Shown here: piece after piece, positions 18,676-62,288 of the stretch
How positions within the stretch are numbered: position 1 is the stretch's first letter
Layout: each line of letters begins with the position of its first letter
Origin: an uncultured virus (IMG/VR IMGVR_UViG_3300042882_001139)
Taxonomy: Duplodnaviria; Heunggongvirae; Uroviricota; Caudoviricetes
Length of the DNA: 64,000 bases
Virus record (IMG/VR): IMGVR_UViG_3300042882_001139
Location: 1-64,000 of that record
Strand: one strand, 5' to 3'
The notes under the pieces: model-generated
What the model was told of the DNA's origin: nothing
The model's input: only the letters and a program-made list of their open reading frames with translations
Databases searched by the model: none
Translations under genes and position numbers: made by a program

Positions 18676-18676
18676 T

Positions 18677-19069: not shown

Positions 19070-19419
19070 GCACGCGTAAATATCACGCAGAAGTTGGTGG
19101 CGGCCAGCACGGGCAGCATGCTCTGAATTGGCCGGGCACGATGGACGGTTTTCCGGTTATTGGTAGTGATGCTGCACTTGGAAATCTTAAGCAGGATGAG
19201 GTTGAAAATCTTGAACTGCAGTACGACTTTAAGTCAAAAATGTTTGTTTTGTGGGACGAAAAGCAAAAAGCAGAGTTTGACGAGATAAACGATAAAATAG
19301 TAAACGGCTGGTATAGGCTGCTTAAACGCAGCGACCACTGGGACGAGGAAAATAATCATTACCGCGTCTGGTTAGAGTGGTTCCAGGTATACGGAATGTT
19401 GCCAACAAAAAAGAGTTGA
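19066..19419 (+). CDS. hypothetical protein
   Basis: AGGAG RBS; ATGA overlap. Confidence 0.65.
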   Translation: MSTRKYHAEVGGGQHGQHALNWPGTMDGFPVIGSDAALGNLKQDEVENLELQYDFKSKMFVLWDEKQKAEFDEINDKIVNGWYRLLKRSDHWDEENNHYRVWLEWFQVYGMLPTKKS

Positions 19420-19422
19420 TGC

Positions 19423-20445: not shown

Positions 20446-20448
20446 GCC

Positions 20449-23400
20449 GTGCTGCCCTTAAACGCGCCTCAAGAACAGCCCCGCGAATTTGGCGATGTTC
20501 CCGCTTTGCGTCAAAGCATTTTTAACAATGCTTTGCAGAGTGCACAGAGCATCGAGCCAATTAAAAACGATCTGTACACGCTGCAATTAAACGACGTAGC
20601 GTACGACGGCCCGGAAGCGTTTACCAAAGCCGATCAAAAGCGTGCTGTGCTTACACGCGGCAACCTGTCGCGAAAACTCCGTGGCACATGGACGCTGACG
20701 GATAACAAGACGAATACGCCCGTCGCCAATCGGCCCGTCACGTTAGCCAGTGTGCCGTACTTAACGGACTCCGGCACATTCGTGAACAAGGGCGTCGAAT
20801 ACACGCTGGCTCATCAATTACGTTTGCGTCCCGGCGTGTTTACCAGACAAAAAGACAACGGCGAGTTAGAGGCCCACGTTAACACGCTTCCAGGTAAAGG
20901 CCGTTCGCACCGGTACTACTTAGACCCGCAAACTGGTGTGTTCAAAATTCAAATTGGGCAGGCGCAGATTCCGCTGATGCCGCTTTTGAAAACTCTTGGT
21001 GTCACAGACAAACAACTGCGTGATACCTGGGGTAACGAGATCACTGCTGTCAACATGCAGCAAGGTGACGCCGGAACACTCGACAAACTTTATCAGCGCC
21101 TTGTGTACTCGCCAGATCCGAAAGCGGATGAACTGGCGAAGATCAAGGCTATTGCCACTGAGTTCAACAAAACAGAGTTCGACGAAGAAGTCACTAGTCG
21201 AACGCTGGGCAAGCCGTACAAAAATTTAACGCCTGACGCCATTCTCGACATCACGAAAAAACTGATTGCCGTTAATCGCAAAGAGGCGGACTCGGACGAT
21301 CGAGACAGCATGGCGTTTCAGTCTGTGTTCGGCCCCGAGGACCTGCTGGCAGAGCGTTTCGTTAAAGACCGCTCGGTGCTGCGGCAACTGCTCTGGAAAG
21401 CCACGGCAAAAAAATCTTTAGACCACATTCCGACTGGCGTGTTCAATAAGTCGATTCAGGCCGCTCTTTTAGGGTCCGGCCTTGGATCAAGTCTTGAAGA
21501 AATCAACCCGGCCGAAATCTTTGACCACCAAACGCGCGTCACCCGGCTCGGCGAAGGCGGGATCGGCAGCATGGACGCCATCCCGGCCGAATCGCGCTCG
21601 GTGCAGCCAAGCCATTTCGGATTCATTGACTATTTGCGTACGCCGGAATCTGGCAAGGTCGGCGTGGACATGCGCTTTGCCGCCGGGGCACGAAAAAGCG
21701 GGAAAAACTTACATACGTTCGTAATCCCGGTGCGGAATGCAAACACCGGGAAAACCGAATACAAAACGCCGCAAGAACTTACGGACATGCCGCTGATGTT
21801 CCCCGGTGAAGACAAGTCAGATCTTCCGATGGTTGCGGCACTAGTTGGCGGCAAGATTAAGTATGTACCGCGGAAAGACGCACAGTACACCGTTCCGAAC
21901 ATGGACAACACTTTCTCGGCACTTACAAACATGGTGCCGATGAAGTCTATGGTCAAAGGGCAGCGCGTGATCATGGGCGCTCGAATGTTTACACAGGCTT
22001 TGCCGCTCGTAAACGCCGAAGCCCCGCTCGTACAGTCTGCTACAAATGACGACGAGAACATATCGCACGAAGATCTGATCGGCGCCAAGATGGGCACGGT
22101 TAAAGCAGACGAGCCTGCCGAGGTGCTACAGGTTACACCCGACAACATTGTTCTTCGGCTGCGTGACGGTACGAAAAAGACCGTCGACTTGTACAACGAC
22201 ATGCCGTTTAATCGGAAGACGTTCTGGACGCAAAAAGCAGCCGTTCAGCCCGGCGACGTGATTAAACCCGGCCAGATTATCGCCACAAGCAACTTTACCG
22301 ATAAGAGCGGAGCGGCAGCCCTCGGCATGAATATGCGTGTGGCGTATGTGCCTTTCCGCGGCAAGAACTACGAAGACGCCATCGTGATCTCGGAATCCGC
22401 GGCCAAGCGCCTAACGTCTGAGCACATGTACCAGAACGAGGCCGAGTGGGACGACAACACGCACGTCGGTAAAAAGGCGTTTGTCAGTCTGTTTCCCAGT
22501 GAGTACGACAAAAAACTGCTCGATAACTTTGACGACCAGGGCGCGATCAAAAAAGGCACGACCGTCAACTTCGGCGACCCGTTAGTGCTAGTCGCCAAAA
22601 AGAAAGAACAGGTGTACGGAAAAGTGCACCGCGGCCGGGCAGGTAGTTTCTCGAATGACACGCTGACCTGGGACCATCATTCGCCAGGTATTGTCACTGA
22701 CGTCGAGCACACAAAGAAGGGCGTGTCCGTGGTTGTAAAGAGCCAGGCCCAGATGGAGTCGGGCGATAAGTTAACTGGTCGCTACGGGGATAAGGGCGTC
22801 ATTGCGGAAGTTGTGCCGGATAATCAAATGCCGCACGACAAAGACGGCAACCCATTTGAAGTGCTTGTCAGCCCGCTTGGTTTAATTTCACGCGTGAACC
22901 CTGCCCAGATTATTGAAGCAGCGTTGGGTAAAGTCGCGGCTAAGACCGGTAAACCGTACAAGATCAAAGATTTCGACAGTGAGAAAGACCTGGTCGAGTT
23001 TGCACAGCAGGAACTCGCCAAGCACGGGTTATCTGACACCGAAGAAGTTATTAACCCAGAGAGCGGCCATAAAATTCCTGGAATATTAACTGGCCAGCGG
23101 TTTTTCATGAAACTGCACCACACGGCTGAATCCAAAGGCCAGGGCCGAGCGATGGCGGGTTATACAGCCGAAGGTACACCGGCCAAAGGCGGCTCTGAGG
23201 GTGCAAAGCGTGTCGGCATGCTGGAACTGGGGGCTTTGCTTTCGCACGGTGCTGGCAAAGTAATCCGCGACGCCAAGATGGTACGTGGCCAAGCGAACCC
23301 TGAGTACTGGTCGCAATTCATGGCCGGGTATGACGCTCCGCTGCCCAAGGTTCCACACGTGTATGAGAAGTTCGTAAATCAATTAAAGGGTGCTGGCATC

Positions 23401-24822
23401 AATACTGTGCGGACTGGAACCAAGACGCACATTATGGCCATGACAGACAAAGACGCCGCGGCCCTTACAGGCGACCGGGAACTCAAGAGCGCCGAGACTG
23501 TCGATTGGAAGGGAAATCTCAAGCCCATTAAAGGCGGCTTGTTTGATGAGTCACTTACGGGCGGTCATGGCGGCAGTCGGTGGGCAAAGATTACGCTTCA
23601 AGAGCCGATGCCCAATCCCGTCATGGAAGAACCTATTCGCCGCGTCTTGGGCCTGACAGAGAAGAAATTCCTGGGGATCTTGGCCGGCCGGGAACAACTG
23701 GGTGACGCAACAGGCCCCAAGGCTATTCAACAAGCCCTGGCCAGCATTAATCTCCCTAAAGCCATCGAGCAGGCAAGGGAAGACATCAAGTCTGGTCGGA
23801 AGACAGTTCGGGATGAGGCTGTTCGGCGCCTTGGATTCCTTAAGTCAGCCGAATCGACCAATATCCATCCGAAAGACTGGATGATTAATCAGGTTCCAGT
23901 TATTCCGCCTGCTTTCCGCCCTGTGTCGACGATGGGGCCAAAGAAGCTCCCGCTCGTAGATAACCCCAATTACCTTTACAAAGAGTTATTTGATGCTAAT
24001 TCAACACTGAAAGAAGCATCTGGGGCCTTATCAGACTATGGCGACGAGCGGCTGGCTGTTTACAACTCAATGAAGGGTGTGACTGGCTTAGGTGCTCCGA
24101 CTAACCCCAAGAACGTCGAAAAGAACGTCCAGGGGTTTTTAGCCAAGATCTTCGGCGACAGTCCTAAATTCGGCACCATGCAGCGAAAACTGCTTTCGAG
24201 CACTGTTGACTTGGTCGGCCGCGCTGTCATTACGCCGAACTCTGATCTGGATATGGACGAAGTAGCCCTGCCTGAAGAGAAAGCCTGGGATATCTACAAG
24301 CCGTTTGTTATTCGCGGCCTTGTTCGTCGTGGCTTACCTCGAATGCAGGCACTCCAGGCTGTTGAAGACAAAAACAAAGCCGCCTTCGACGAATTAAACA
24401 CCCAGATGAACGCTAAGCCCATTGTAATTAACCGGGCGCCCGTCTTGCACCGCTACGGCGTGATGGCATTTAAACCGCGCTTGACCAAAAATAAGGTCAT
24501 GGAGGTTAACCCGGTAATCACGAAGGGGTTTGGTGCAGATTTTGACGGGGACGCTATGCAATATCACGTTCCCAGCACAAATGAGGCGGCAAAAGAAGCA
24601 CTTGATAAGATGTTACCTAGTAAGAACTTGTTTAGTACGTCCAGCTTCAAGGCTCACTACGTTCCAAACAAGGATTACCAGACTGGGCTGTACCTAGCAT
24701 CGAGTAGAATAAATCAACGCAGTAAACCACGCGTGTTTAAAAGCAAACTAGAGGCTGTGGCGGCTTACCGGCGCGGCGAAATCAACGTAGACACGCCCGT
24801 ACACATTGTGGAAGATAAATAG
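20449..24822 (+). CDS. rpoBC: DNA-directed RNA polymerase, beta subunit fused to N-terminal half of beta'
   Basis: beta motifs TPESGKVG, NYEDAIVISE, GDKLTGRYGDKG, SRVN, MKLHH; beta' motifs VIPPAFRP, GRAVITP, NRAPVLHR, catalytic GADFDGD (24532-24552); GGGAGG RBS before GTG. Confidence 0.96.
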   Translation: MLPLNAPQEQPREFGDVPALRQSIFNNALQSAQSIEPIKNDLYTLQLNDVAYDGPEAFTKADQKRAVLTRGNLSRKLRGTWTLTDNKTNTPVANRPVTLASVPYLTDSGTFVNKGVEYTLAHQLRLRPGVFTRQKDNGELEAHVNTLPGKGRSHRYYLDPQTGVFKIQIGQAQIPLMPLLKTLGVTDKQLRDTWGNEITAVNMQQGDAGTLDKLYQRLVYSPDPKADELAKIKAIATEFNKTEFDEEVTSRTLGKPYKNLTPDAILDITKKLIAVNRKEADSDDRDSMAFQSVFGPEDLLAERFVKDRSVLRQLLWKATAKKSLDHIPTGVFNKSIQAALLGSGLGSSLEEINPAEIFDHQTRVTRLGEGGIGSMDAIPAESRSVQPSHFGFIDYLRTPESGKVGVDMRFAAGARKSGKNLHTFVIPVRNANTGKTEYKTPQELTDMPLMFPGEDKSDLPMVAALVGGKIKYVPRKDAQYTVPNMDNTFSALTNMVPMKSMVKGQRVIMGARMFTQALPLVNAEAPLVQSATNDDENISHEDLIGAKMGTVKADEPAEVLQVTPDNIVLRLRDGTKKTVDLYNDMPFNRKTFWTQKAAVQPGDVIKPGQIIATSNFTDKSGAAALGMNMRVAYVPFRGKNYEDAIVISESAAKRLTSEHMYQNEAEWDDNTHVGKKAFVSLFPSEYDKKLLDNFDDQGAIKKGTTVNFGDPLVLVAKKKEQVYGKVHRGRAGSFSNDTLTWDHHSPGIVTDVEHTKKGVSVVVKSQAQMESGDKLTGRYGDKGVIAEVVPDNQMPHDKDGNPFEVLVSPLGLISRVNPAQIIEAALGKVAAKTGKPYKIKDFDSEKDLVEFAQQELAKHGLSDTEEVINPESGHKIPGILTGQRFFMKLHHTAESKGQGRAMAGYTAEGTPAKGGSEGAKRVGMLELGALLSHGAGKVIRDAKMVRGQANPEYWSQFMAGYDAPLPKVPHVYEKFVNQLKGAGINTVRTGTKTHIMAMTDKDAAALTGDRELKSAETVDWKGNLKPIKGGLFDESLTGGHGGSRWAKITLQEPMPNPVMEEPIRRVLGLTEKKFLGILAGREQLGDATGPKAIQQALASINLPKAIEQAREDIKSGRKTVRDEAVRRLGFLKSAESTNIHPKDWMINQVPVIPPAFRPVSTMGPKKLPLVDNPNYLYKELFDANSTLKEASGALSDYGDERLAVYNSMKGVTGLGAPTNPKNVEKNVQGFLAKIFGDSPKFGTMQRKLLSSTVDLVGRAVITPNSDLDMDEVALPEEKAWDIYKPFVIRGLVRRGLPRMQALQAVEDKNKAAFDELNTQMNAKPIVINRAPVLHRYGVMAFKPRLTKNKVMEVNPVITKGFGADFDGDAMQYHVPSTNEAAKEALDKMLPSKNLFSTSSFKAHYVPNKDYQTGLYLASSRINQRSKPRVFKSKLEAVAAYRRGEINVDTPVHIVEDK

Positions 24823-24838
24823 ACACAGGGAGGCTTTC

Positions 24839-25483
24839 ATGGCGATCAACCCGTATTTAATGTCGATGGCCCGCGATCAATTCGAGAAGTCGGCCGTCGT
24901 TCCGCCTGGCGGCGGTGACCCGTCTATGGGTGCAGCCCCGCCTGTTGATCCTTCTATGGGCGGTGCGCCGCCTATGGACCCGGCTGCTATGGGTGCCGTT
25001 CCACCCGCCGGCCCGGCTGCACCGGTTGATCCGGCCACCGCGATGGCTGCAATGGGAGGTGCTCCCGCCCCCGCTGCGATGCCTGCGGCTGCGCCCGCTC
25101 CCGCTGCGCCGGCCGGCGGCCAGAAGTTAAAGCCTGAGCAGATGATGCAGATGATCGATATGCGGCTGTACAACATGCAACAGCAGTTAACATCGATTAT
25201 GAACGCCATGGGCGTGCAAGTCGCTCCTGAGTCGCTTGTTCTTCCTCCGGGCACGACTGGTGCCCCGCCTGCCGAATCGGCTCTCCCCGGCGGTCCTATG
25301 GCTCCGCCTCCGCCGCAAGACCCTGCCGCGGCTGGTATGCCTCCCGGTGGTATGCCTCCCGAGGCTATGCCGCCTGAGATGGCGAAAGGTGCCAACTGGA
25401 ATGCCGGTCAGATTTTAGATCTGCATACCAAGGCGTCGGCGATCAAGGCGTTACGGAGGAGTTTAGAGAGCAATGCGGGTTAA
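24839..25483 (+). CDS. Pro/Gly/Met-rich low-complexity protein with K-x-A leader
   Basis: GGGAGG RBS; FEKSAV; short helical core LKPEQMMQMIDMRLYNMQQQL. Confidence 0.65.
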   Translation: MAINPYLMSMARDQFEKSAVVPPGGGDPSMGAAPPVDPSMGGAPPMDPAAMGAVPPAGPAAPVDPATAMAAMGGAPAPAAMPAAAPAPAAPAGGQKLKPEQMMQMIDMRLYNMQQQLTSIMNAMGVQVAPESLVLPPGTTGAPPAESALPGGPMAPPPPQDPAAAGMPPGGMPPEAMPPEMAKGANWNAGQILDLHTKASAIKALRRSLESNAG

Positions 25484-25712
25484 AACGCAATTTAACCTGC
25501 AACCAGCGGACACGCCGGCCCATAGCGTCGTAATTGAAGACGACATGGGTAATCCAATTATCGTGGCAACACAACTGACCGAGTCAATTGTGTTTTCCAC
25601 GGTAAATGACCCCGACTTCCAGTCCGTGCTTCGATCTCTCGGCATTACTAAGACTGTAAAAATAACAGAATTTAAACCCAAGCCGCTTCAAGATATTATC
25701 TGGACACCGTGA
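25473..25712 (+). CDS. small hypothetical protein between RNAP genes
   Basis: GGAG RBS; overlaps both neighbours. Confidence 0.6.
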   Translation: MRVKTQFNLQPADTPAHSVVIEDDMGNPIIVATQLTESIVFSTVNDPDFQSVLRSLGITKTVKITEFKPKPLQDIIWTP

Positions 25713-27595
25713 TGTTAAAAACCACGCTTGGTCAAATTCTGATTAACGACGCACTCCCGGAAGATCTGCGGGACTACGATCGTGTCTTAGATAAAAAGAC
25801 GATGGGTGCCTTGGCGACAAAACTAGCCGAGCAGTACCCAGACAAATATCGAGATGTCATGAAGCGGCTGCACGACGTCGCTCACGAGTCGGCCCATACG
25901 ACCGGCGGCCTGTCTTTCGGGCTCAAAGATATTAAGCAGACGCTTGCCGCTCGCCATGCCCAGATAAAGGCTCGTGCCGGTCTGCGTGCGATCATGGCGA
26001 ACGGCAAATTCTCCGAAGAACAGCGAACGCAGAAGATCCTAGAACTAGCCTCAACTATTCAGCAGAAACTAGTAGAGGACGTTTATGCCGAGGCTAAAGG
26101 TAATGATAATCCTTTGATGCACCAGGTGTTGGGGTCTGGTGTCGGCAATAAATACTCGCTGAATTCGATCATTGGTGCCGACATGCAATATGTCGACCAC
26201 AAAAACGATCCGATTCCTTTGCCGGTGCTGCACAGTTACAGCCGAGGCTTAAGACCCGCCGAGTATTTTGCGGGCGCCTTCGGCGCCCGCAAGGGTGTAA
26301 TTGATACTAAGACGGCTACGGCAGACGCCGGCTTTTACGGCAAGCAATTGACCCAAATGGCGCACCGCCTGCTCGTTACCGCCGACGATGACGATGACGA
26401 AGAATGGAACAGCACAGCGAGCGAGCGTGGCTTCCCTACAGACGTCGATGACCCGGATAACGAAGGTGCCCTGCTTTCGCGACCTGCGGGGCCGTATAAA
26501 CGAAACACGGTCCTGACGCCCAAAATCCTGCAAGACATTAAAAAAATGGGCGTCAAGGATATTCTTGTCCGCAGCCCGACTGTGGGCGGTCCGAGTGACG
26601 GCGGAGTTTTCGCTAAAGACGTCGGATTTCGCGAAAAGGGCCGGCTACCGCCGGCCGGTGACTACGTTGGAATTGCAGCAGTTCAGGCGCTCTCCGAGCC
26701 GGTATCGCAGGGGCAATTGTCGTCGAAGCATTCTGGCGGTGTCGGCGGTGCCGGGTCTATTTCTGGCTTCAAGGCGTTAAATGCCTTGGTACAGGTGCCG
26801 AAGACATACCCGGATGGCGCCGCTCACGCCCAGCGCGACGGCAAAGTGCAGGAGATCCGCCAAGCACCGCAAGGCGGCGTATACGTCACCATCGACGGCG
26901 AAGAACACTACGTCGGGGCCGACCGCACTGTCGCCGTTAAAAAGGGCGACACACTTGAAGCCGGCGACGCGATTTCAGACGGCATGCCGAATCCGGCCGA
27001 GATTGTTAAGCACAAGGGTATTGGCGAGGGCCGGCGTTACTTTACGCAAGCTATGCGGCAAGTTATGAAAAACAGCGGCATGAGCCCGCACCGCCGAAAT
27101 ATCGAATTGCTGTCGCGAGGCATTGTGAATCATGTCCGCATGCTCGACGAATACGGCGACCACGCGCCAGAAGACGTTGTGCCGTATTCGATGCTGGAGC
27201 GCAACTGGCAGCCGCGCCCGGGGAGCGTTGCGGGCAACCCTACAACGTTAACAGGGCATTATCTTGAGCGGCCCGTGCTGCATTATTCTATCGGCACAAA
27301 AATAAGTAAATCTGTCAACGAAAACTTAAAAAAGTACAACATCGCGAGCGTGCAGGCGCACAAAGAACCCCCACCGTTTCAGCCTGAAATGATTCGCGGA
27401 ATGTCAAACATCTCACACGACCCGGACTGGATGACGCGCATGCTGGGGTCGTATCAAGAAAAAGGCCTGCTGAACAGCGTACACCGCGGTTTAACGAGCG
27501 ACGCGGCCGGCAGCAGTTACGTCCCGGCTTTAGCCCGCGGCGAGCAATTTGGCGTTACAGGTGTTACAAGCGGGTGGAAGCCGGAAGGCGTTTAA
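25709..27595 (+). CDS. rpoC: DNA-directed RNA polymerase, C-terminal half of beta'
   Basis: TTLGQILIN, bridge helix EYF...GARKG..DT...TADAGF, VRSP, trigger loop GIAAVQALSEPVSQ..LSSKHSGG, RNIELL. Confidence 0.93.
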   Translation: MMLKTTLGQILINDALPEDLRDYDRVLDKKTMGALATKLAEQYPDKYRDVMKRLHDVAHESAHTTGGLSFGLKDIKQTLAARHAQIKARAGLRAIMANGKFSEEQRTQKILELASTIQQKLVEDVYAEAKGNDNPLMHQVLGSGVGNKYSLNSIIGADMQYVDHKNDPIPLPVLHSYSRGLRPAEYFAGAFGARKGVIDTKTATADAGFYGKQLTQMAHRLLVTADDDDDEEWNSTASERGFPTDVDDPDNEGALLSRPAGPYKRNTVLTPKILQDIKKMGVKDILVRSPTVGGPSDGGVFAKDVGFREKGRLPPAGDYVGIAAVQALSEPVSQGQLSSKHSGGVGGAGSISGFKALNALVQVPKTYPDGAAHAQRDGKVQEIRQAPQGGVYVTIDGEEHYVGADRTVAVKKGDTLEAGDAISDGMPNPAEIVKHKGIGEGRRYFTQAMRQVMKNSGMSPHRRNIELLSRGIVNHVRMLDEYGDHAPEDVVPYSMLERNWQPRPGSVAGNPTTLTGHYLERPVLHYSIGTKISKSVNENLKKYNIASVQAHKEPPPFQPEMIRGMSNISHDPDWMTRMLGSYQEKGLLNSVHRGLTSDAAGSSYVPALARGEQFGVTGVTSGWKPEGV

Positions 27596-27674
27596 TGTAG
27601 GATAATAGGCTGTAACACGCTAAAGTAGTAAACAGTCAGCGTTTCGTTACGTTTAGTGCCGCATGGAGGTGGCC

Positions 27675-30068
27675 GTGTACAACAAAAGCAAAAAAGAAGC
27701 GTCGTGGCAGCACTGGCTGAAGGTAGTTAGGTCTCACGACCGCAGCCAAGTCAAACAGGCCGAAATTGGCGGCCGTGGCGATGACACTTCTTTTGAACAG
27801 GCGTTTTCTAACCTGGCCCACGCTTACTTGCGTGACTCAGCGCCCAAATTGCTTGATCACGAAGTCGGTTTCCAATTATTGGACCGCAACCGCGAGAACA
27901 CAAAAGCCGTTGGCGTATTTGCTTTTAAAGTCGGTGCCCAGTGGCTTTACGCCCCGGTATTCTTTTTAAACGGCGACTTGAAAGGGCACGAACTCCTGTA
28001 CATCAAAAATCAGGATATGTTCGTACCGCTCAAAGAAAACTGGATCAACTATTTAATCAATCGAAAGCCGAACATCCTTGGCAACGGCGTCGATCGAAAT
28101 CTGTCGAATCTTGGCCAACGGCAGCCGGACTTCACGCAACTTTCCCGCAGCCCGTCAAAGTTCGGCTCGGCGCAGCCCACGCTCAAAGAGATGATGACTG
28201 CGGCCATGCCGGCATTTGCGAAATCGGCCACGATGAATACCGCCCAGGCTTTTGCCGAACTTGGCAGTGCGATCAACCTGCCGGCGTTCTTAAAAGAAGC
28301 CAGCATGCAAATGTTAAGCACGCTGGTTAACAGCTGCAAGAAAGCCCCCGAACTCGCCGAGGCCATCGACTCGTTCCACGGTTTAAATATCGTCAAAGAG
28401 GCCGTAGCACAGGCGTCGGCTCGCGTAAGCCGCACAAAAGTGGCGAGCGTGTTGTCTGAGGCTCCCAAAACGCCAGCGGCTGAAAAGTCGCTTGAAGTCA
28501 TTACGCTCGATACGACGGTGCAGACTAAGTTACCGCCGGGTCACACAGAAGAAGACCAGGAAAAACTTTTGCGGGACGGCGTGCTGATTCTCGACAAGCG
28601 GGATCGCGACAACGTTTCGATTCCCTACCATATCCAAGTCGAGAAGCGGCTGTTTAATCCGACCGAGAGCGGTCTGTACGAAATCCTCGTCAAGCCGGGC
28701 AATATTGAACGCTGCTACGTGGCCGTATTCCCGATGGGTGCCGCCAAGCGGTCTAACTTCGTCACGGTCGTTCGCATTGACGGTAAAGCCGACTGGATTA
28801 ACACACGGGCTGACCATGTTTTTGCACTTTCCCGCGTAGAGGGCGAAGAGTTTGACAAATGGTATGACGGTCTTCCGGAAGCCAAAAGCCTTCCGTCCGG
28901 TCGCTCGCGCGTAATGCTGCTTAACAAGCGCGGCGACACTACCGCCCCGGTTCGGAGCCTTCGCGAATATGGCGAAACAAATGGCTCGACGGTGTACGAA
29001 GTGCATCTCGAGGATTACACAAAGTTTCCGCCCAAGGGCAGCATTTCTCCGTGTTGCTACTCTGACCCGCTTAATTACGACAAGTACCGCGACGGCGTGC
29101 GGCTGCATTTAAACGGTAAAAAGGGTTCGTCGCTGCGTGCCAGCATGGGCGACATCTTTGTGCCGGAAGGGTTCAAGATGCTGAAGTGCGAGCCGGGCGA
29201 AGACGACGTCGATTCGGCTGAAGGGCAGGGTGCATGCGGTTGCGGCGAAAGCAAAGATCCGCCGCTGATGCCGGGCAACCTGCTTGACGCCCAGATGGAG
29301 TTGATGCAAAAAACATCGTCTTTAACTGTGACAAATAACGGTCACGCTGTAGAGATTCACAGCGGGCAAAAACAACTCGTTGAAAAAGAACTGTCTGAAA
29401 AGCAGGCACTGGTGTCGTTAGTACGGCAGCACGGTTTACGAGAAGAAGCCGCCCGCGACATTCTGAAACAAGCGGCTGATAAACGAAAGTTTGAGTGCCG
29501 CGTAAAATATGCCGAGCCGTACGGCAGCCCGATGATGATCAACAGTGCCCCGAACGCTCCGAGTGATCCCGGCGCGGTCATGGGCGGCGAAAGCATCATG
29601 GGCACGAGCGTTCCAACACAACTCGGTATTGACGTCGGTATGCCTGTGTCGGGCATGGCTGCTAGTCAGACGGATCGCAGCGTTTACAACCCGAACACTG
29701 AGTTAGATCAAAAAGATTTACGCTCGGTAATCGACGCCGCTCAAAGCGGTCAACGCGAAGTATTTGACACAGCGATGATTGGCTCCATGTTGCGAACTGT
29801 ACGCGACGACGGCATGGTAGATCGCTACATGGGTGAACTGACAAAGGGCCTCGACAAACTGGGGCGCATCTTGTTTATGTTTTATTGGCATGGCGACCGG
29901 TTTGCCGATCGTTATGGCAAGGCCGACATGCCGGAACTGGAAGATTCGCTGCGTAACGCATTTGAGATGCTTGGCGACGTCATCTTGTTCCTGAAGCAAA
30001 AGACAATCGAGCCGTATCCAGAAGAAGCCAACAGCGACGTCGACTTAGGTCCCGTTGCCAACTCTTAA
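27675..30068 (+). CDS. large head-associated protein with many K-x-A motifs
   Basis: GGAGG RBS before GTG 27675; VKQAE, AKSAT, LKEAS, TKVAS, VKYAE; position in head module. Confidence 0.6.
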   Translation: MYNKSKKEASWQHWLKVVRSHDRSQVKQAEIGGRGDDTSFEQAFSNLAHAYLRDSAPKLLDHEVGFQLLDRNRENTKAVGVFAFKVGAQWLYAPVFFLNGDLKGHELLYIKNQDMFVPLKENWINYLINRKPNILGNGVDRNLSNLGQRQPDFTQLSRSPSKFGSAQPTLKEMMTAAMPAFAKSATMNTAQAFAELGSAINLPAFLKEASMQMLSTLVNSCKKAPELAEAIDSFHGLNIVKEAVAQASARVSRTKVASVLSEAPKTPAAEKSLEVITLDTTVQTKLPPGHTEEDQEKLLRDGVLILDKRDRDNVSIPYHIQVEKRLFNPTESGLYEILVKPGNIERCYVAVFPMGAAKRSNFVTVVRIDGKADWINTRADHVFALSRVEGEEFDKWYDGLPEAKSLPSGRSRVMLLNKRGDTTAPVRSLREYGETNGSTVYEVHLEDYTKFPPKGSISPCCYSDPLNYDKYRDGVRLHLNGKKGSSLRASMGDIFVPEGFKMLKCEPGEDDVDSAEGQGACGCGESKDPPLMPGNLLDAQMELMQKTSSLTVTNNGHAVEIHSGQKQLVEKELSEKQALVSLVRQHGLREEAARDILKQAADKRKFECRVKYAEPYGSPMMINSAPNAPSDPGAVMGGESIMGTSVPTQLGIDVGMPVSGMAASQTDRSVYNPNTELDQKDLRSVIDAAQSGQREVFDTAMIGSMLRTVRDDGMVDRYMGELTKGLDKLGRILFMFYWHGDRFADRYGKADMPELEDSLRNAFEMLGDVILFLKQKTIEPYPEEANSDVDLGPVANS

Positions 30069-30078: not shown

Positions 30079-30462
30079 ATGCCCAGCACAGTTTGGTCAG
30101 GCAGTAAAGAGTTTACGACGAATGCCGGGTCGGCAACGACGGTGGCCATTCCAATGCCGCATCGTGGCGTTTTAAAAGGCTACAACCTCGTCGAGGCGGC
30201 TGGTGGTGCAACAGGTAACTTCACTGCCACGCTGTATTCGAGCAAGCAGGATAAGGCGCCGAACAACGCGTTACCGGCAGACACATTCAAAGTGCTGACG
30301 TTTGACCAGGCTGCGGCTTTTAAAAACGACTTAAACGTGTCGTATCTCAATCGTGACGGCTCGCCGACTAATCCGCAGCGCTACCTGTATCTTAAAATTA
30401 CGACGGCGGCAGTTAAAAACTTTGTGTTCTCTGTCACCGTAGACACGCCGACGCTGCGCTAA
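30079..30462 (+). CDS. putative virion structural protein
   Basis: Beta-rich Thr/Ala composition, AGGTG RBS. Confidence 0.5.
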   Translation: MPSTVWSGSKEFTTNAGSATTVAIPMPHRGVLKGYNLVEAAGGATGNFTATLYSSKQDKAPNNALPADTFKVLTFDQAAAFKNDLNVSYLNRDGSPTNPQRYLYLKITTAAVKNFVFSVTVDTPTLR

Positions 30463-38038: not shown

Positions 38039-38965
38039 ATGCCCACTCAGCAAGAAGTTCAACTGCTCAACGAGACTCTCTTTGAGCAACTCGATACCCC
38101 CGGCATGCAGAAGCAGGCCATTGATGCTGTTAACGACTTCACGCGCACCAAGATGCGTGAAGACGGGTTCTACCGGCGGATTATGCCGCCGCTGACCATC
38201 ACCAACGACGAGCTCGACCGTCAGGTTGACACTGACAAGCCCGTCAAGGTTGTGGACAAGGAGCCCGATTCCCCGGCGGCTGTGTCGCTTCCGTTTGCGA
38301 CACTCCCGATCAACTTTTACATCCGTGGCCCGCGCTACCGCGTCATGTTTGACCGGATCGTGTCGCCCCGTGCTGTGAAGGACGTCGACGAACTCCGTAC
38401 GTATGTCATCGACATCCGTCAGGTGCTCAGCGACAACATGATCAAGGACATGCTCGCCGAGGAAGACTCGAAGTTTATTGCCGCTTTCAAGGCCGTACTC
38501 CCGACGCCTGGCACCGAAGTCACGATGTCGGAAACGGTTCAGTACGAGGAAATCTCTGGTGGCATCACCCGCGAAACGCTGGTTGACGCCCTCAAGGTTA
38601 TGCCCCGTACGCCGTCGCACTTTGAAGTTGAGACCTGCCTCGTGAATAACATCACGATCAAGGAACTTCTCAAGTTCGGCCGCGACGAAATGGGTGGCGA
38701 TTTCAGCCAGGACATCATCAAGAATGGCTGGGCTGAAACCAACTTCCTGAACTGCCGCTGGATCGTCACGATCAAGCGCGACCTCGTTCCGGACGATTCG
38801 CTGTTCATGTTCGCTTCGCCGAAGTTTATCGGCAAGAACTACGAGCTGGAACCCACCACGATGTACATCCGTCGTGAGGCTTACATGCTTGAGTACTTTG
38901 CCTACAACACGCAGGGTGGTTCGTTCGGTCATACGAACGGTCTGGCCCGTGTTGACTTCAAGTGA
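38039..38965 (+). CDS. putative major capsid protein (HK97 fold)
   Basis: Position after protease/scaffold/decoration; strongest C-ending codon bias; QKQA near N-terminus; EEDSKFI backbone-helix-like motif. Confidence 0.7.
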   Translation: MPTQQEVQLLNETLFEQLDTPGMQKQAIDAVNDFTRTKMREDGFYRRIMPPLTITNDELDRQVDTDKPVKVVDKEPDSPAAVSLPFATLPINFYIRGPRYRVMFDRIVSPRAVKDVDELRTYVIDIRQVLSDNMIKDMLAEEDSKFIAAFKAVLPTPGTEVTMSETVQYEEISGGITRETLVDALKVMPRTPSHFEVETCLVNNITIKELLKFGRDEMGGDFSQDIIKNGWAETNFLNCRWIVTIKRDLVPDDSLFMFASPKFIGKNYELEPTTMYIRREAYMLEYFAYNTQGGSFGHTNGLARVDFK

Positions 38966-54885: not shown

Positions 54886-55262
54886 CAGCCTACATGGTGC
54901 GGGCTGCAGTATCGGGGGCAATTGACTACTCCCGAGCCGATCCCACGGACAGAAACTGGCGGTTAAAGCAAAACCTGGTGCTGCGTGAAATACAGCGCCA
55001 AGAGGATCTGCAGATCCACACGGCGATACACCAGCAGTGGCTGGCGTACATATCGCACGGCCGGCTCACGCCAGAAAGCTTTGACTCCGTAAAAAGCCAG
55101 GCGAACGAGGCCCTCGACCGCCTGCAGGAGTTAATTTTGCCGTGGGTCGAAAAGACTGAGCCTAAACAACTGCTTCAAAACGATACAATGTTAGATGCAG
55201 AAACGCAGAAACTTGTAGAGCAATATAAGCGCGAATTTGGCGGCGGAGACGAACAAAAATGA
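54867..55262 (+). CDS. putative tail assembly chaperone extension (-1 frame)
   Basis: Overlaps previous gene in -1 frame, no clear RBS, abuts tape measure gene. Confidence 0.5.
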   Translation: MDRDRIAAYMVRAAVSGAIDYSRADPTDRNWRLKQNLVLREIQRQEDLQIHTAIHQQWLAYISHGRLTPESFDSVKSQANEALDRLQELILPWVEKTEPKQLLQNDTMLDAETQKLVEQYKREFGGGDEQK

Positions 55263-58200
55263 ATGGGTTCCAAGCACCCGGCCCCGTGCCGTGGACATAC
55301 GCCGCACCCTACAACCCGGCTATGAGCATGGGTTTTAACCCGTCTGGCTTTGGTGCTATTGCGGGCCCGTTAATGACGAGTTATTTGCAGCAATTTGCTG
55401 GCCCCACCAATTTTTTGCCGCATCAGTTCCCCGGGCAGGCCAAAGCCGACCAGTTCATAATGCGGGAGTACTTTAACCGCAGCCAGCAAAATTTATACAG
55501 AACAAACGCCGCAGGTGACCAGCGGTTTGCCAATGTGCTATTAGGCACCCGCGGCATGGTTACTGACAAGCCGGCCTCTGATTTAAATCGAGGCCAGGCT
55601 TTAAACATGGCCCAAATGTTAAACGACCCCACAGTTAAAGGTCTGGTGGGCATGATGGTCGGCCCTGAGAATCTTGAGCAAATTATGTTCGGCAGTGCCG
55701 GCGACCCCATGGCTATGGCCGCTGCCGCGAACCGTATTGGGTATTACCGGCCTGACGCACTTACTGGCGCGAAAAAAATGAGTGCCCGGTCGCTAGAGTC
55801 TTTTTCCCGCGGTATGTACGCGACTATGTACGAACCTGCCGGGGACGTAGAAAAAATGGTGGCCGATGCTCGGGCAGGTGATCCAACTCAGACTGCAGCG
55901 TTACAAAAAGCCGCTCGTGCTGAGAGTTCAAGAATTGTACGCGACGACGAAGTAAGCCAGCGTCTTATCGATCAGGGAGAAGACCGCGTAAATGATCTGT
56001 ATAAGCGATATCAGCCAAGCGGCACCGCGACAACAGTAACCGATAAAGCGGCAGCCCTTACAAAATTTGATCGTGCTGTAAATGACGCCAACGTTCTTTC
56101 GGCAGACGAGGTGACGTTCGGCGGTATGGAGCGAAAAGCAAAGCGTGCCGGGCTTGATAGCATGCACGGCTTCTCCGCGTCACAGGCGGCAACAGTCACT
56201 GAGAACTTATTTCAAAAAGGTTTGTTACCGCAAAGCATCGGCGCCTTGTCGCCGGCTGAGCGCGTCAAAGTGCTGGCCGATCAAAATATGGATGACGAGA
56301 CGCTTACCAGGCTCGCCAAAGAATATGGGCGACACTATTTAACAGAAGGCGGTGGCCGTAATTCAGACGCCGGTGCCGCGTTCAGAGCCGCAGGCACAGA
56401 TATCGTTAAACAAAATAAAGTGCTTGATGACAACACGGAAGACTTCAAAGGTCAACTGCGATTTAATATGTCGCAGTTAAAGGGCGCTGTCGGCACGGCG
56501 AACCCTGAAGATTTACTGCAACTTGAAGGCATGGACGTCGTCGCTAACCAGGTCGACGCAAGTAAAGCGGGTAATGCGGTCAAAAAGCACACAGAAGCAT
56601 TAGCCGCGATTAGAGAGATTTTCGGAGACAGCGGTAATCCAAACGCTCCCGTGCCCGCCCTGCTTGCGGCTCTCGATCACTTAAGCCATGGCTCGATGCA
56701 CCAAGTCGGCGCGGGAAGAGTTGCTGGCATTATGCGTGAGATGCGCGGGACAGCTAAAGAGATCGGCATGGGCTTTGACCAGTTGGCAGGCTTCTCCGCA
56801 TCTGTGGGCGCGTACGGCGACACACTTGGATTGTCCGGCCCGTCAAAAATGAATGCCGTCAATGAAGCACTAACTATGGTGCAGTCAATGCGACAGAGCG
56901 GTGCATTATCTATTGAACGCTACGGCGCAATGAGCCAAGAAGAGGCGTTACAGCAGGCGGGCATGTTGGCCGCCCGCGGCGAAGGCTCGTCAAACGCCAA
57001 GTCTGTCGCCGCATTGGTCCGTGCGTACGAGTTAGATCCGAGCAAGTATGCCGGCACAGAATTGGAAGCAGCTGTTAATTCGCTCAAGGAAGGCGGCGAC
57101 GGTAACTACGAAGTTAAAGACGCTAGCGGTAACGTTGTAAAAACCGGCAATATTTACGAGCAACTTGGCACCGGCGGCTTCCGAGAGGCGTCGCGTATTG
57201 CGGCAACCGGCGGCATGACGCATCAAGAGTTCATGACGTTACATGCTGACTCGGCCACCATGGAGTACAGCCAGTCGGGTGCTGCCATGCGAACCATGCG
57301 GCAAGAATATTTAGAGCGTGTGGGTGGTAACGCGTTTGGCGGATTCTTGGCACAGGGCCTCGACAATATCAAAGACCCGGACAATAAACTCGATGGTCGC
57401 GACGCTGCGGCAGTGCGTGGTCGTAATGTTATCGCCACTAAGTTTGCGGAGATAGCACTTGACACCGCACACATGGACGAAAAAGAGCGCGTCGATCACA
57501 TCAATAAGACAATCAAAGATGAGTTTGCGGCAGCATTAATCGCAGACGCCGAGCGCCAAGGCATTACGATCGATGACGCTGCCCGTGCAGAAGCCAACAA
57601 ACAAGCAGAGTTCGCGGTGCGTGGAATCTTGGGCGATGACCCAAATCGCCGCGACCAAACACTGCAGTCACGGCTGGCGGGTTTCAACACCTCGTCTGAG
57701 CAGTTAACTGGCCGCGGCACTGTGGCCACATATCAACTTTTTAGCAAGGATCAGCAAGCACAATTTGCCAACGCACAGACAGCCCGAAAAGAAGAAGCCG
57801 ATCGCCGATATAAGCTTGGCTTTGGATTAGATAGTTCACCGCTCGGCCGACTGTCGGATTATCTGGCTGAGACCGGTATGACTGGCGAAGCCGTTACGAA
57901 AGAAAACCTGATTAAAGAGTTGGCTGGCATAATCCCCGATCAAAAGTTTAGGGAGACGCTGGCCGACCAACTGATGCCGCAGTTAAACGCCTCGCGGGAC
58001 GCGGGAAATCAACACCTTGTCACCACTCGGCACCTAGACGATCTCGAACAGAAGACCCGGTCAGGCGACAAAAAAGAAAGCGCCGCGGCGGCTGAAGAAC
58101 TCCGTGCAATCGCCGCTCGCCGCGATAAGCGGTTTGAGAAAGCCGACGGGCTGGTGACCGAACAGGAACTATCAGCAAAACGTGCCGAAGCATTAAAAGG

Positions 58201-59131
58201 CATGGACGACGCTAAATTAAAAGCCGTCTATTCAAGAAAATTCAGCGATCGTACCGGCCGTACAAACGACGAGATGATACAAGAGTTGTCGGCGTCCGGC
58301 GTTGACCTGTCTAAAGAAGTCGGCTTACGTGAACAAGATCTGCTCGATAAGGGGCAGTATACCGTCGGGCAGATGCGCAGTGCCGCCGAGACAGAGGTGG
58401 GCAAAGGCCGCGGTAAAACAGAGGCCGAGATCGCGGAGAATCGCCGAAAAGCAGATCGCGAAGATCGTAAGGCCGCGGGCATTATCGGTGCGACCGTCGA
58501 AGATCAGCGACGCGGCACGGCAGCTGTATTAGAAGACGCTACCGGTGGCACGCTAAAAGGCGAAAAACTAGAACAGTTAGTAACCGCTAGTTTAGAGAAA
58601 GGTGCAGACGGCAAACACTCTGACGCGTTCTTGAAGCAGTTAGACACGTTAGGTTTAAGCGACGACAAGAAAAAAGAAGTACTAGATTACACCGCGCGGC
58701 AGCGGGAAGTTAAAGAGGCCCGCGAGGCGAGCGGGCAGCCGACGGGCGAACAAGTCGACGATAAGGCCGGCACGAAAAAAACCGCAGACACTGCGGCGGC
58801 AACTGACGAGTCGTTCAAGTTGCTGGCCACGACCGCCGGCGAACTTAACAAATCGTTCACCGAGCTAATTGCTGTCATTAAAGCACAAAAACCCACAGCG
58901 GGTGAGCAGCCAGGAGTGCAAGACTCCGCGGCACAAGTGGCCCAGGCAAAAACTGCGGGAACAAATGTTGCGGCTACGCCACCACCAGCCCCGACACCGG
59001 CAGGTAAAGACGGCGGCACAACCCAAATTACAGGGCGCTTAAATATCGTAGGGCTCGACTGGGCAATCCTGACAGCCACCATGCCTCAAATGCAAACCAA
59101 CCCTGGCGGTATAACAATCGCAAAAACCTGA
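55259..59131 (+). CDS. tape measure protein
   Basis: 1290 aa, helical Ala/Gly/Gln-rich, no Cys, position after chaperones. Confidence 0.75.
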   Translation: MNGFQAPGPVPWTYAAPYNPAMSMGFNPSGFGAIAGPLMTSYLQQFAGPTNFLPHQFPGQAKADQFIMREYFNRSQQNLYRTNAAGDQRFANVLLGTRGMVTDKPASDLNRGQALNMAQMLNDPTVKGLVGMMVGPENLEQIMFGSAGDPMAMAAAANRIGYYRPDALTGAKKMSARSLESFSRGMYATMYEPAGDVEKMVADARAGDPTQTAALQKAARAESSRIVRDDEVSQRLIDQGEDRVNDLYKRYQPSGTATTVTDKAAALTKFDRAVNDANVLSADEVTFGGMERKAKRAGLDSMHGFSASQAATVTENLFQKGLLPQSIGALSPAERVKVLADQNMDDETLTRLAKEYGRHYLTEGGGRNSDAGAAFRAAGTDIVKQNKVLDDNTEDFKGQLRFNMSQLKGAVGTANPEDLLQLEGMDVVANQVDASKAGNAVKKHTEALAAIREIFGDSGNPNAPVPALLAALDHLSHGSMHQVGAGRVAGIMREMRGTAKEIGMGFDQLAGFSASVGAYGDTLGLSGPSKMNAVNEALTMVQSMRQSGALSIERYGAMSQEEALQQAGMLAARGEGSSNAKSVAALVRAYELDPSKYAGTELEAAVNSLKEGGDGNYEVKDASGNVVKTGNIYEQLGTGGFREASRIAATGGMTHQEFMTLHADSATMEYSQSGAAMRTMRQEYLERVGGNAFGGFLAQGLDNIKDPDNKLDGRDAAAVRGRNVIATKFAEIALDTAHMDEKERVDHINKTIKDEFAAALIADAERQGITIDDAARAEANKQAEFAVRGILGDDPNRRDQTLQSRLAGFNTSSEQLTGRGTVATYQLFSKDQQAQFANAQTARKEEADRRYKLGFGLDSSPLGRLSDYLAETGMTGEAVTKENLIKELAGIIPDQKFRETLADQLMPQLNASRDAGNQHLVTTRHLDDLEQKTRSGDKKESAAAAEELRAIAARRDKRFEKADGLVTEQELSAKRAEALKGMDDAKLKAVYSRKFSDRTGRTNDEMIQELSASGVDLSKEVGLREQDLLDKGQYTVGQMRSAAETEVGKGRGKTEAEIAENRRKADREDRKAAGIIGATVEDQRRGTAAVLEDATGGTLKGEKLEQLVTASLEKGADGKHSDAFLKQLDTLGLSDDKKKEVLDYTARQREVKEAREASGQPTGEQVDDKAGTKKTADTAAATDESFKLLATTAGELNKSFTELIAVIKAQKPTAGEQPGVQDSAAQVAQAKTAGTNVAATPPPAPTPAGKDGGTTQITGRLNIVGLDWAILTATMPQMQTNPGGITIAKT

Positions 59132-60628: not shown

Positions 60629-62288
60629 CAATTACGTATTCTCGCAGTTTAAACTTTACGCCATGATAGAAGACATCGGGCGTGTAGACGATATTGTCGC
60701 CATATCCGGCAACTTTGCGTTAAACACGATTCCAACAGCTGCACTCATTTTGGCTTGCGGTATTAACGCTACAACGAACGCGCAGGCCAGTGCCCACTCA
60801 AAAATTATGGGCAAAATAAAGTCACGTGCTCGCGTGTCCGTGTACTTAGAAGTAGACACGACCGATGGCTACAAGGAAAAAATGCCGAGCGAAAAAACGT
60901 TCATGGTGTTTGACGGATACTATGCGGGGTTTGGTTTTCAGCGTTCGAACAATAATGCAAATTACACGCTGCACCTAGTGCACTGGCTCGATGACTTAAA
61001 CATAGGCTCGATGTTAAACGGGCAGTGGTTCCCCGGGGCGCCGTTTAACGTAGCCGATAACGCGGGCTACTACACGGCGACGAACCAGGCACAGGGCTCT
61101 GGCTTTGTAATGGCCCCGGCAATTGATCCTGACAATCAAATCATAACGTATTCAAATATCACGAACGACCTGTGGGGCGATGTGCTGAAGCCTGTTCTAA
61201 CAGTTATTGCTGGTTGGGGCACGAATAAGTGCGCCACAGGCGTAGACACCGAGCATGAAAAAAAGATCAAAGCGGCCTTAGAGAAGATGCCTGGCTCCGC
61301 ACCGAACAAAGTAAAACTTGGCTTAAACCTTGACGGCCCCGGCGGGCTTACGGGAGATCTCATTAGAGATTCCGTCAACGATGCTTTAACAAAAGTTGGC
61401 GTGCAAGCGTTTAGTTACTCAACTTTTTGGAGCAAACTTACCGGCGAATACGCACCGCAATTTTTGTTCGCACTGTCGCCCGGAGTTGACTTTGCACAAG
61501 TCGTGCCTGTCTTCGGCGGGTTAAAGTGGCGCGACGGCGACAAAGTCGTTTACGCTGACGAGTACGGCTACGCTAATTTTATGGGCAACACCCGTCAAAC
61601 ACTTGGCGGCATAGACATTATCTGGCCTGCAAGTTTTGGCTCTGGTTTAGTCGCCGGCACGCCGGTACAGAACGATTATCGCCCGCCGTCGTTTTGCGAC
61701 CCGCCAGGTCTTTTTCCGTCACATGAAGCCCGCAAAACGCGGCCGGGCACTGTGCTTGTAAAAGAACCACCGAGTTGGTTCGGCAACATCATGAGCAAAA
61801 TATCGAATACATCTCGGACGGCCGGGTTAAGCGGTAGCGTGCTAGGCGCTAATAACGACGCCAGCAAAGGTGCCGACGCTACAGAAAAAGCAAAAAAAGA
61901 ATCTGAACTGCAGCAAAATATAAAAGACAGTCCGGTGTTAGACAGGTTTGCCGAACAGTGGTTTAAAACAGAATTACTGCAGCAGCGTTACGGCGAGTTT
62001 TCCGGCAAGTTACGCTTTGATATAGCTCCGGGCAGCGTCATTAAAATTAAAGCACCCACAGAAAACATGCCGCAGTTGTCAGATAACACGGACATGATAG
62101 CAACTGTCGTGCAAGTTTCGTTCTCCATTAACGCTGAAAACGCAAACGCAGGTACGGCGTTTTCCGTATCACATATTCGTTCACCTGCTGAAAACGACGA
62201 TCGTTTAATCGCTGGGTCCGACACGCCGCCGTTATACAATGAACGCTGGGCCGGCGGCCCGCTCTCCTCAAAAATTAAATACACATGA
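60621..62288 (+). CDS. putative baseplate hub protein (gp27/gpD-like)
   Basis: VFDGYYAG N-terminal barrel; GKLRFDIAPGSVIKI...VVQVSFSI. Confidence 0.6.
   Translation: MPDNYVFSQFKLYAMIEDIGRVDDIVAISGNFALNTIPTAALILACGINATTNAQASAHSKIMGKIKSRARVSVYLEVDTTDGYKEKMPSEKTFMVFDGYYAGFGFQRSNNNANYTLHLVHWLDDLNIGSMLNGQWFPGAPFNVADNAGYYTATNQAQGSGFVMAPAIDPDNQIITYSNITNDLWGDVLKPVLTVIAGWGTNKCATGVDTEHEKKIKAALEKMPGSAPNKVKLGLNLDGPGGLTGDLIRDSVNDALTKVGVQAFSYSTFWSKLTGEYAPQFLFALSPGVDFAQVVPVFGGLKWRDGDKVVYADEYGYANFMGNTRQTLGGIDIIWPASFGSGLVAGTPVQNDYRPPSFCDPPGLFPSHEARKTRPGTVLVKEPPSWFGNIMSKISNTSRTAGLSGSVLGANNDASKGADATEKAKKESELQQNIKDSPVLDRFAEQWFKTELLQQRYGEFSGKLRFDIAPGSVIKIKAPTENMPQLSDNTDMIATVVQVSFSINAENANAGTAFSVSHIRSPAENDDRLIAGSDTPPLYNERWAGGPLSSKIKYT

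Follow-up and report, generated by a model that had tools for sequence, protein, structure and literature searches.

The RNA polymerase genes of the window

We analysed a 64,000-nucleotide stretch of DNA (the window), the opening 64 kb of a virus record of 123 kb in IMG/VR (IMGVR_UViG_3300042882_001139), and focused on two of its genes that encode a multisubunit RNA polymerase (RNAP). CheckV estimated the completeness of the 123-kb record at about 60%, and the record is part of the genome of an uncultured tailed phage of about 200 kb. Positions below are those of the window unless stated to be those of the record. The RNAP region contains the following features.

20449..24822, + strand: RNAP chain 1, an in-frame fusion of beta with the N-terminal half of beta' (beta'N); 1457 residues, GTG start, no cysteine (Cys)
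24532..24552, + strand: catalytic motif GADFDGD, residues 1362-1368 of chain 1, inside the Rpb1_2 match
24806..25483, + strand: Pro/Ala/Met-rich open reading frame (ORF) of 225 residues between the RNAP genes; Cys-free, no Pfam or PHROG match
25473..25712, + strand: ORF of 79 residues overlapping the start of chain 2; Cys-free, no Pfam or PHROG match
25709..27595, + strand: RNAP chain 2, the C-terminal half of beta' (beta'C); 628 residues, GTG start, no Cys

Chain 1 matched the Pfam families Rpb2_6 (E 4.8e-48), Rpb1_2 (E 3.1e-23), Rpb2_3 and Rpb1_1, and aligned to solved bacterial beta (E 6.7e-65) and beta' (E 7.3e-47) chains. It terminates about 90 residues past the catalytic GADFDGD. Chain 2 matched Rpb1_5 (E 4.1e-22) with its bridge-helix and trigger-loop regions present, and residues 3-498 aligned to residues 658-1165 of solved beta' (E 6e-34). 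Of the features of a bacterial-type multisubunit RNAP, the catalytic region of beta, the double-psi barrel of beta' with its Mg-binding DFDGD, and beta'C were found. Jumbo-phage RNAPs have their beta' divided downstream of the catalytic barrel, at the site used in cyanobacteria (PMC7598289). The split in the window is at the same place as in the jumbo-phage and cyanobacterial enzymes, and solved cyanobacterial gamma and beta' chains were among the matches to the window chains. No other RNA polymerase of the phage was recognisable, and the enzyme encoded by these two ORFs is a stripped-down bacterial-type core. A megablast search of positions 18000-30000 against GenBank phages gave no match.

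Absence of cysteine and of both zinc sites

The earlier note on this DNA had claimed that the two RNAP chains, 1457 and 628 residues long, contain no Cys. Counting both translations confirmed this, and the small ORFs that separate them, of 225 and 79 residues, also have none. The background is 219 Cys in 20,519 ORF residues for the window (1.07%) and 588 in 38,793 residues for the whole record (1.52%, 140 ORFs of at least 60 residues). At the record mean, the Poisson probability of finding no Cys is 2.6e-10 for the longer chain and 7.3e-5 for the shorter one. Sulphur economy fails to explain the absence, because the Met content of chain 1 is ordinary (41 in 1457 residues).

The note had also set the RNAP against tail and baseplate proteins described as Cys-rich. 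This held for some proteins of the window (17 Cys in 965 residues at 50965-53862 and 12 in 484 at 34022-35476), but not for the sheath homologue (0.66%) or the capsid homologue (2 Cys in 308 residues). The truly Cys-rich proteins (2.5-3.7%) lie beyond the window end, in the baseplate/fibre region at record 69,989-80,175. The Cys-richest large protein of the record, a 1370-residue collagen-repeat protein with 50 Cys (3.65%), is also found in that region outside the window (record 76063-80175, L004:13063-17175). Cytoplasmic enzymes of the record have normal Cys contents, as seen in terminase (11 in 656 residues), the C5 methylase (6 in 334) and the AAA ATPases.

Bacterial beta' carries two zinc sites, the N-terminal zinc-binding domain (ZBD) and a second Cys4 site. 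Their places in the window are as follows.

23536..23583, + strand: GLFDESLTGGHGGSRW, remnant at the place of the ZBD, residues 1030-1045 of chain 1
26390..26392, + strand: first ligand column of the second zinc site, Asp228 of beta'C
26567..26626, + strand: VRSPTVGGPSDGGVFAKDVG, remnant of the second zinc site, residues 287-306 of beta'C, in which the three Cys columns are G294, F301 and D304

Residues 1062-1190 of chain 1 pair with residues 143-271 of Bacillus subtilis beta' (6wvj_D; E 2.3e-8), and residues 1010-1038 pair with residues 26-53, a match of 1.6 bits that is not significant alone but is collinear. Twenty-three residues without Cys thus occupy the place of 89 in B. subtilis beta', and no ZBD is present. 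In Escherichia coli the four ZBD Cys are located in this gap. This fits the cluster of Cys 58/60/73/76 that we counted in phiKZ gp55, a region that has been termed a Zn domain (PMC7618050). The note had described the ZBD as replaced by GLFDESLTGGHGGSRW; the position (nt 23536-23583) and the loss stand, but the 23 residues in place of 89 indicate that the domain was deleted rather than substituted.

To place the columns of the second site, chain 2 was aligned to three solved beta' chains from actinobacteria, whose Cys in '...trsvltc-esavgtcafcyg...' face G, F and D. The Cys of the upstream 'edcg' faces D228. The four ligand columns of the window therefore read D228, G294, F301 and D304, and there is no Cys4 site. 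This agrees with the note's statement that VRSPTVGGPSDGGVFAKDVG stands where cellular enzymes have C..C..C.

Conservation of the cysteine purge in related phages

We then counted Cys in relatives at several distances. A near set was made up of 120 listed homologues of chain 1 with 75-99% identity, of which 111 have no Cys, 3 have one and 6 have 6-13. In these six, all Cys lie within inserts of about 350-420 residues. The chain 1 inteins of relatives sit either between RTPE and SGKVG, with Cys1 as nucleophile and Ser at +1, or between PFNRK and TFW, with Ser1 and Thr at +1. As the +1 residue is Ser or Thr, splicing yields a Cys-free chain. One insert-bearing chain 1 homologue matched intein Pfam families. 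Inteins recur in the RNAP genes of many relatives, including the chain 1 homologues P0009, P0032, P0038, P0095, P0106 and P0100, and are absent from the window genes; among the beta'C inserts of relatives (representatives P0124-P0273), 67 of 81 counted are near residues 200-210 and 330-340.

A distant set consisted of 150 cluster representatives (clusters at 50% identity) that share 47-57% identity with the beta'C of the window. Over this set the RNAP core contains 50 Cys in 93,623 residues (0.053%), the internal inserts (inteins) 499 in 23,465 (2.13%), and the lineage-specific C-terminal extensions 22 in 60,572 (0.036%). No representative (0/150) has Cys at the ligand columns of the second zinc site; 122 have no Cys in the aligned part, and the other 28 were judged by printed column patterns. 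C-terminal extensions of beta'C are present in 103 of the 150, and 86 of these 103 are without Cys. The extensions of relatives span 100-1158 residues, and the window beta'C has none. Five extensions were tried as a possible fused SNF2 helicase or counterpart of window proteins: four matched nothing and one matched the DUF5661 region of the protein at 10784-12631. Two extensions hold DUF4269 and/or DUF5661, the DUF5661 region being 51% identical to residues 382-514 of this 615-residue window protein, and that of relative P0216 holds NUDIX and SNF2 domains.

A third comparison covered 68 related IMG/VR loci, in which hits with at least 99.5% identity and hits covering less than 60% of the query were dropped. 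Chain 1 homologues have 6 Cys in 84,465 aligned residues (60 of the 68 loci) and chain 2 homologues 1 in 37,633 (61 of the 68). The small ORFs between the RNAP genes behave similarly, with 6 Cys in 8,659 residues for homologues of 24806-25483 (43 loci) and 3 in 3,657 for those of 25473-25712 (49 loci). Counting Cys in homologues against non-virion proteins had been proposed in the note; in our counts the RNAP chains are near zero, against 0.97%, 2.18% and 2.36% in the genes flanking them and 2.13% in the inteins. The purge holds at 47-99% identity over hundreds of sequences. Because the inteins and flanking genes are normal in Cys and the RNAP core is poor, the purge acts on the mature polypeptide, not on the gene region or codon usage. 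In one relative (G005, L121-L122 region, 51-52% identity), beta (open frame of 1110 residues) and beta'N (599 residues) are separate frames, and therefore the fusion is not universal in the window clade.

A sister clade represented by Salmonella phage Arash

Among 50,697 GenBank phage records, true relatives of the RNAP were found only in Salmonella phage Arash and three Vibrio phages (D69, D148 and D181). The other hits were bacterial rpoB or rpoC genes in mislabelled records and were set aside. The RNAP of Arash (gp206 and gp216, OQ632216.1) matches that of the window over its full length with 31-32% identity, and likewise consists of beta fused to beta'N and a separate beta'C. The Arash-type enzyme also shares with the window the absence of the ZBD, the purge of non-ligand Cys and the presence of one RNAP set per genome, and in Arash, too, a Cys-free sigma adjoins baseplate genes. 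The arrangement differs in that the Arash RNAP genes are separated by nine mostly opposite-strand genes, whereas those of the window are separated by the two small Cys-free ORFs.

Arash gp206 has 1 Cys in 1525 residues. Both gp216 and its D69 homologue have exactly four Cys, all on the four Zn-ligand columns. All 120 gp216 homologues listed, with identities of 51-100%, have the four ligands, and 113 have no other Cys; non-ligand Cys amount to 7 in 72,993 residues. Free thiols are thus purged and the ZBD is missing in both clades, with loss of the second site only in the window clade.

The virion proteins of Arash have been analysed by mass spectrometry (PMC10585845). The RNAP chain gp206 ranked first of all proteins (128 unique peptides, 3516 spectra), and unique peptides were also reported for gp216 (40), the sigma gp10 (24) and the SNF2 helicase gp217 (38). 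The second sigma of Arash, gp196, is absent from the virion table, and the helicases gp193 and gp197 had 2 peptides each. We found no Cys in gp10 and gp217, against 3 in gp196, 6 in gp193 and 9 in gp197. Arash proteins detected with 10 or more unique peptides, 36 in number, have 0.40% Cys, compared with 1.29% in the 144 other ORFs of at least 100 residues (Mann-Whitney p 1e-6). The Arash capsid protein gp226 and the tail-tube proteins gp227 and gp228 are likewise Cys-free. Since the paper and GenBank do not always number the genes alike, the counts were restricted to proteins matched by coordinates. In Table 2 of PMC10585845, Gp061 is given as ribonucleotide reductase, but gp61c of OQ632216.1 is a hypothetical protein of 117 residues; one row is labelled 'xxxxx', and Gp225.1 is unannotated in OQ632216.1.

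Sigma factor, other cysteine-free proteins and gene context

Further genes of the window bear on the RNAP through their products or their position.

62285..63109, + strand: sigma-70-family factor among baseplate genes; 274 residues, no Cys; Sigma70_r3 (E 3.8e-10), r4 (E 1.9e-5), phrog_351
55259..59131, + strand: Cys-free protein of 1290 residues, encoded between the genes for sheath/tube and those for the baseplate; resembles a tape measure in position only, no family match
38039..38965, + strand: major capsid homologue (Arash gp226; blastp 30% identity, E 1.4e-37), which puts the RNAP genes in the head module
30079..30462, + strand: conserved Cys-free ORF of 127 residues; homologues have 2 Cys in 6,379 residues (48 loci)
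27663..30068, + strand: protein of 801 residues with 8 Cys, weak homologue of the Arash structural protein gp218 (blastp E 5.8e-6)

The sigma factor at 62285-63109 is the orthologue of the Arash virion sigma gp10 (E 1e-16), and the orthologues in Arash and in two relatives, G005 and the complete G001, all have no Cys. The RNAP core probably works with this sigma-70-type factor of the phage itself. The protein in the tape-measure position is Cys-free in the window, in G001 (1486 residues) and in G005 (1872 residues), 4,648 residues in all. G001 also encodes a Cys-free SNF2 protein homologous to Arash gp217. The 615-residue Cys-free protein at 10784-12631, with 2H phosphoesterase and P-loop kinase domains, was dropped from the conserved Cys-free set because 7 Cys occur in the 435 residues of its homologue in G001.

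The RNAP genes lie with the morphogenesis genes; they share the strand of the capsid homologue and precede it by about 10 kb. The capsid, sheath and gp218/gp222 homologues are downstream of the RNAP genes on that strand, as in Arash. The Pfam scan of the window record matched no capsid family. Homologues of the protein at 27663-30068 have 483 Cys in 49,646 residues (0.97%, 63 loci). Immediately upstream of the RNAP genes, separated by a 3-base gap, is a 340-residue protein (19423-20445) with 1 Cys, several Gly/Ala-rich hydrophobic stretches and no family match; its homologues have no Cys in 1,888 residues (8 loci). As a guess, it may be a membrane-active virion protein. Candidate promoter words were sought by counting 7- to 9-mers in 37 gaps of the record that span 60 bases or more; no single word was present in over 5 of them, but the test was crude and does not show that such words are absent.

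One polymerase without alpha or omega

Pfam scans found a single locus each for beta and beta' in the window record, in Arash, in D69 and in 5/5 relatives at 98-100% completeness. As a control, the same scan was applied to phiKZ and recovered 0/2 beta'N and 1/2 beta homologues. As the control was mostly missed, the Pfam scan is blind to very diverged RNAP sets, and a conclusion of a single RNAP from Pfam alone was set aside. For this reason G001 was also scanned with PHROG, over 105 of its 108 ORFs that reach 180 residues; the three omitted run across locus ends. RNAP families were found only in the two known ORFs, and a sigma family in one ORF. Alpha (PF01000) and omega (PF01192) were found in 0/5 records (the window record, three complete relatives and Arash), with controls at 14/14; very diverged analogues could escape this search.

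Comparison with other phage polymerases

The virion RNAP of phiKZ (gp178, gp149, gp180, gp80 and gp176; PMC7618050) shares with that of the window a multisubunit build without alpha or omega and a beta' split after the catalytic barrel. The phiKZ- and AR9-like virion RNAPs are packaged and, by the literature, injected for early-gene transcription. phiKZ differs from the window phage in encoding a second RNAP, which is non-virion, in lacking a sigma-70 homologue, and in having subunits far more diverged from the bacterial ones. The virion RNAPs of jumbo phages are thought to traverse the tail unfolded (PMC7598289). The AR9 host is Gram-positive and has no periplasm. In the 150 kb of AR9 annotation examined, the virion RNAP genes g078, g145 and g189 are joined from 3, 3 and 6 pieces. 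The non-virion RNAP of AR9 differs from that of the window in having five chains and in recognising, through gp226, uracil promoters on the template strand.

The closest precedent for the loss of Cys is the N4-like virion RNAP, a packaged and ejected enzyme with near-total Cys suppression. N4 gp50 and DEV gp71 have no Cys, and over 191 Schitoviridae the content is 0.00075% compared with 0.865% in the proteomes; an explanation of Cys suppression in ejected N4-like proteins through the periplasm and disulfide formation has already been published (PMC11445570). The note's statement that the N4 virion RNAP is Cys-free and ejected is therefore borne out in print. A zinc-binding motif has been predicted in DEV gp71-C (PMC11445570). 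The N4-like enzyme differs from that of the window in being a T7-like single subunit of unrelated fold, about 3,400-3,500 residues long, in a podovirus with an ejectosome.

The window phage very probably belongs to the mReC clade of Weinheimer and Aylward (2020), judged by its description: uncultured Caudovirales from IMG/VR and metagenomes with a deeply branching multisubunit RNAP, some with genomes above 200 kb, whose beta and beta' are near enough to cellular ones to be found with COG0085 and COG0086 (PMC7481178). The words virion, sigma, zinc and cysteine do not occur in the main text of that paper. The 'moraphage' (PMC12619734) was considered and proved to be a different lineage without RNAP genes. 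A paper on a tape-measure-fused virion RNAP (PMC10770324) contains no occurrence of cysteine, zinc or unfold. Our literature search, whose coverage did not extend to most subscription journals, found no paper on a Cys-free or zinc-free multisubunit RNAP.

A probable virion enzyme and the alternatives

We consider it reasonably likely that the RNAP is a virion enzyme, packed and delivered with the DNA to start transcription, and that its Cys were purged by selection against free thiols. The enzyme would be made late, together with the head genes, and packed into the particle with the sigma factor and, in relatives, the SNF2 ATPase. After delivery with the DNA, it would start transcription in the host. 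Outside the reducing cytoplasm, free thiols would oxidise or form wrong disulfides, and selection against them could cover both storage in the particle and passage through tail and envelope, stripping every Cys from the mature chains. In the window clade, after the ZBD lacking in both clades, the second zinc site would also have been lost, giving an enzyme that folds without zinc. The note had likewise taken the RNAP for a virion enzyme, and the N4 precedent, the presence of the Arash RNAP in virions and the conserved purge speak for it. Its further proposal, that freedom from Cys and loss of the zinc sites are the signature of a virion RNAP, did not survive comparison with phiKZ, with its 17 Cys, with Arash, which keeps the second site, or with AR9, whose non-virion enzyme lacks the ZBD.

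A number of points weigh against the virion-enzyme reading. The virion data come only from Arash, at 25-32% identity. The 116 proteins listed for the Arash preparation include ribonucleotide reductase and DNA primase, and its authors allow for carry-over of abundant proteins (PMC10585845). Arash and all 120 listed gp216 homologues keep the four Cys of the second site, of which the window clade has none. Because the sister clade keeps this Cys4 zinc site under the same purge, zinc loss is not demanded by the lifestyle; the retained site also argues mildly against full unfolding in an oxidising compartment, and thus against the unfolded translocation through an oxidising periplasm that the note inferred. 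Since the Arash capsid and tail-tube proteins are Cys-free, the trait marks virion proteins generally and not only translocated ones. The phiKZ virion RNAP, with 17 Cys in 2856 residues against 33 in 2850 for the non-virion enzyme, is depleted but not Cys-free, so that freedom from Cys is no universal signature of virion RNAPs, and the AR9 non-virion RNAP lacks the N-terminal Zn domain of beta' (PMC7618050). Passage through a periplasm would presuppose a host that has one. With only one sigma and one RNAP found in the complete relative, the distinction between early and late genes would be unexplained. In this family, freedom from Cys is a good probabilistic mark of virion membership and no proof of ejection.

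The RNAP may be packaged and yet owe its purge solely to long extracellular storage in oxidising water, which would affect any virion protein, and not to unfolded passage through a periplasm, zinc loss then being secondary and clade-specific. The non-translocated gp226, gp227 and gp228 of Arash are Cys-free, high-confidence Arash virion proteins together have 0.40% Cys against 1.29% in other ORFs, and the Cys4 site of the sister clade would be exposed if the chain unfolded in a periplasm, all of which would suit storage. We nevertheless think storage alone a rather unlikely cause, as outer virion proteins of the record are not depleted (2.5-3.7% Cys in the baseplate/fibre region, 0.66% in the sheath homologue), and the zero-Cys set consists of the RNAP, the sigma and the tape-measure-like protein, those expected to pass through the tail. 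A more specific form of the virion-enzyme reading, which we put forward tentatively as somewhat less probable than not, is that the zero-Cys set is a starter kit for transcription sent from the head through the contractile tail. It would comprise the zinc-free core, the sigma-70-type factor, the SNF2 (RapA-like) ATPase and a few small proteins, together with the tape-measure-like protein.

Whether the RNAP enters the particle at all is the other question. An intracellular, non-virion enzyme for middle or late genes, detected in Arash through carry-over and having lost its Cys for another reason, for example to resist oxidative or thiol-directed stress in the host, seems improbable to us. The Arash table does hold many clearly non-structural enzymes, and carry-over is raised by the authors themselves (PMC10585845); moreover, no second RNAP was found that would take over from an injected one, and the ZBD is lost also in the non-virion RNAP of AR9. 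On the other hand, the other cytoplasmic enzymes of the record (terminase, C5 methylase, AAA ATPases) have normal Cys, the Arash RNAP chains, gp10 and gp217 gave 24-128 unique peptides compared with 2-11 for obvious contaminants, and the purge includes the sigma and the SNF2 partner but not the second sigma of Arash. That the genes lack Cys by an accident of composition or mutation, or through wrongly called ORFs, is already refuted by the conservation of the purge at 47-99% identity and by the 2.1% Cys of inteins in the same genes; the Poisson probabilities also speak against it, and we found nothing in its favour.

Other genes of the window

Elsewhere in the window, the product of 8250-9284 matched Pfam Volactin, an actin-like protein, over its full length (PF25216, E 1.9e-61). 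Peptidoglycan-binding (PF01471) and matrixin-type metalloprotease (PF00413) domains are encoded at 14724-15545. A PhoH-like ATPase (3711-4424), a ferritin-like protein (6736-7212) and a cupin domain protein (1374-1847) were also found.

Implications

Phage RNAPs carried in the virion were known before, as was the suppression of Cys in proteins that are delivered. What is new here is the contrast between the sister clades, in which loss of zinc appears as an extra step beyond the purge of free thiols. The N-terminal zinc domain of beta' has been termed common to all multisubunit RNAPs. The present enzymes make up a very large natural family in which a near relative of the bacterial RNAP manages without zinc sites, cysteine, alpha or omega. 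With four zinc ligands left in one clade and none in the other, the two form a natural experiment that separates selection on free thiols from selection on zinc dependence.

If packaging were confirmed, the rule of Cys suppression, published for N4-like enzymes of one subunit, would come to include a sigma-bearing holoenzyme of bacterial type, and this would suggest how a 230-kDa enzyme can be built to survive storage and delivery. Delivered proteins of metagenomic phages could then be picked out by a simple criterion of sequence, and a two-chain multisubunit RNAP free of Cys and metal sites could suit labelling and folding studies. Should the whole zero-Cys set indeed be sent into the host, this would be the first virus-delivered sigma-dependent holoenzyme, allowing infection independent of the host RNAP with one polymerase, and a conserved absence of Cys would become a predictor of ejected proteins in uncultured phages.

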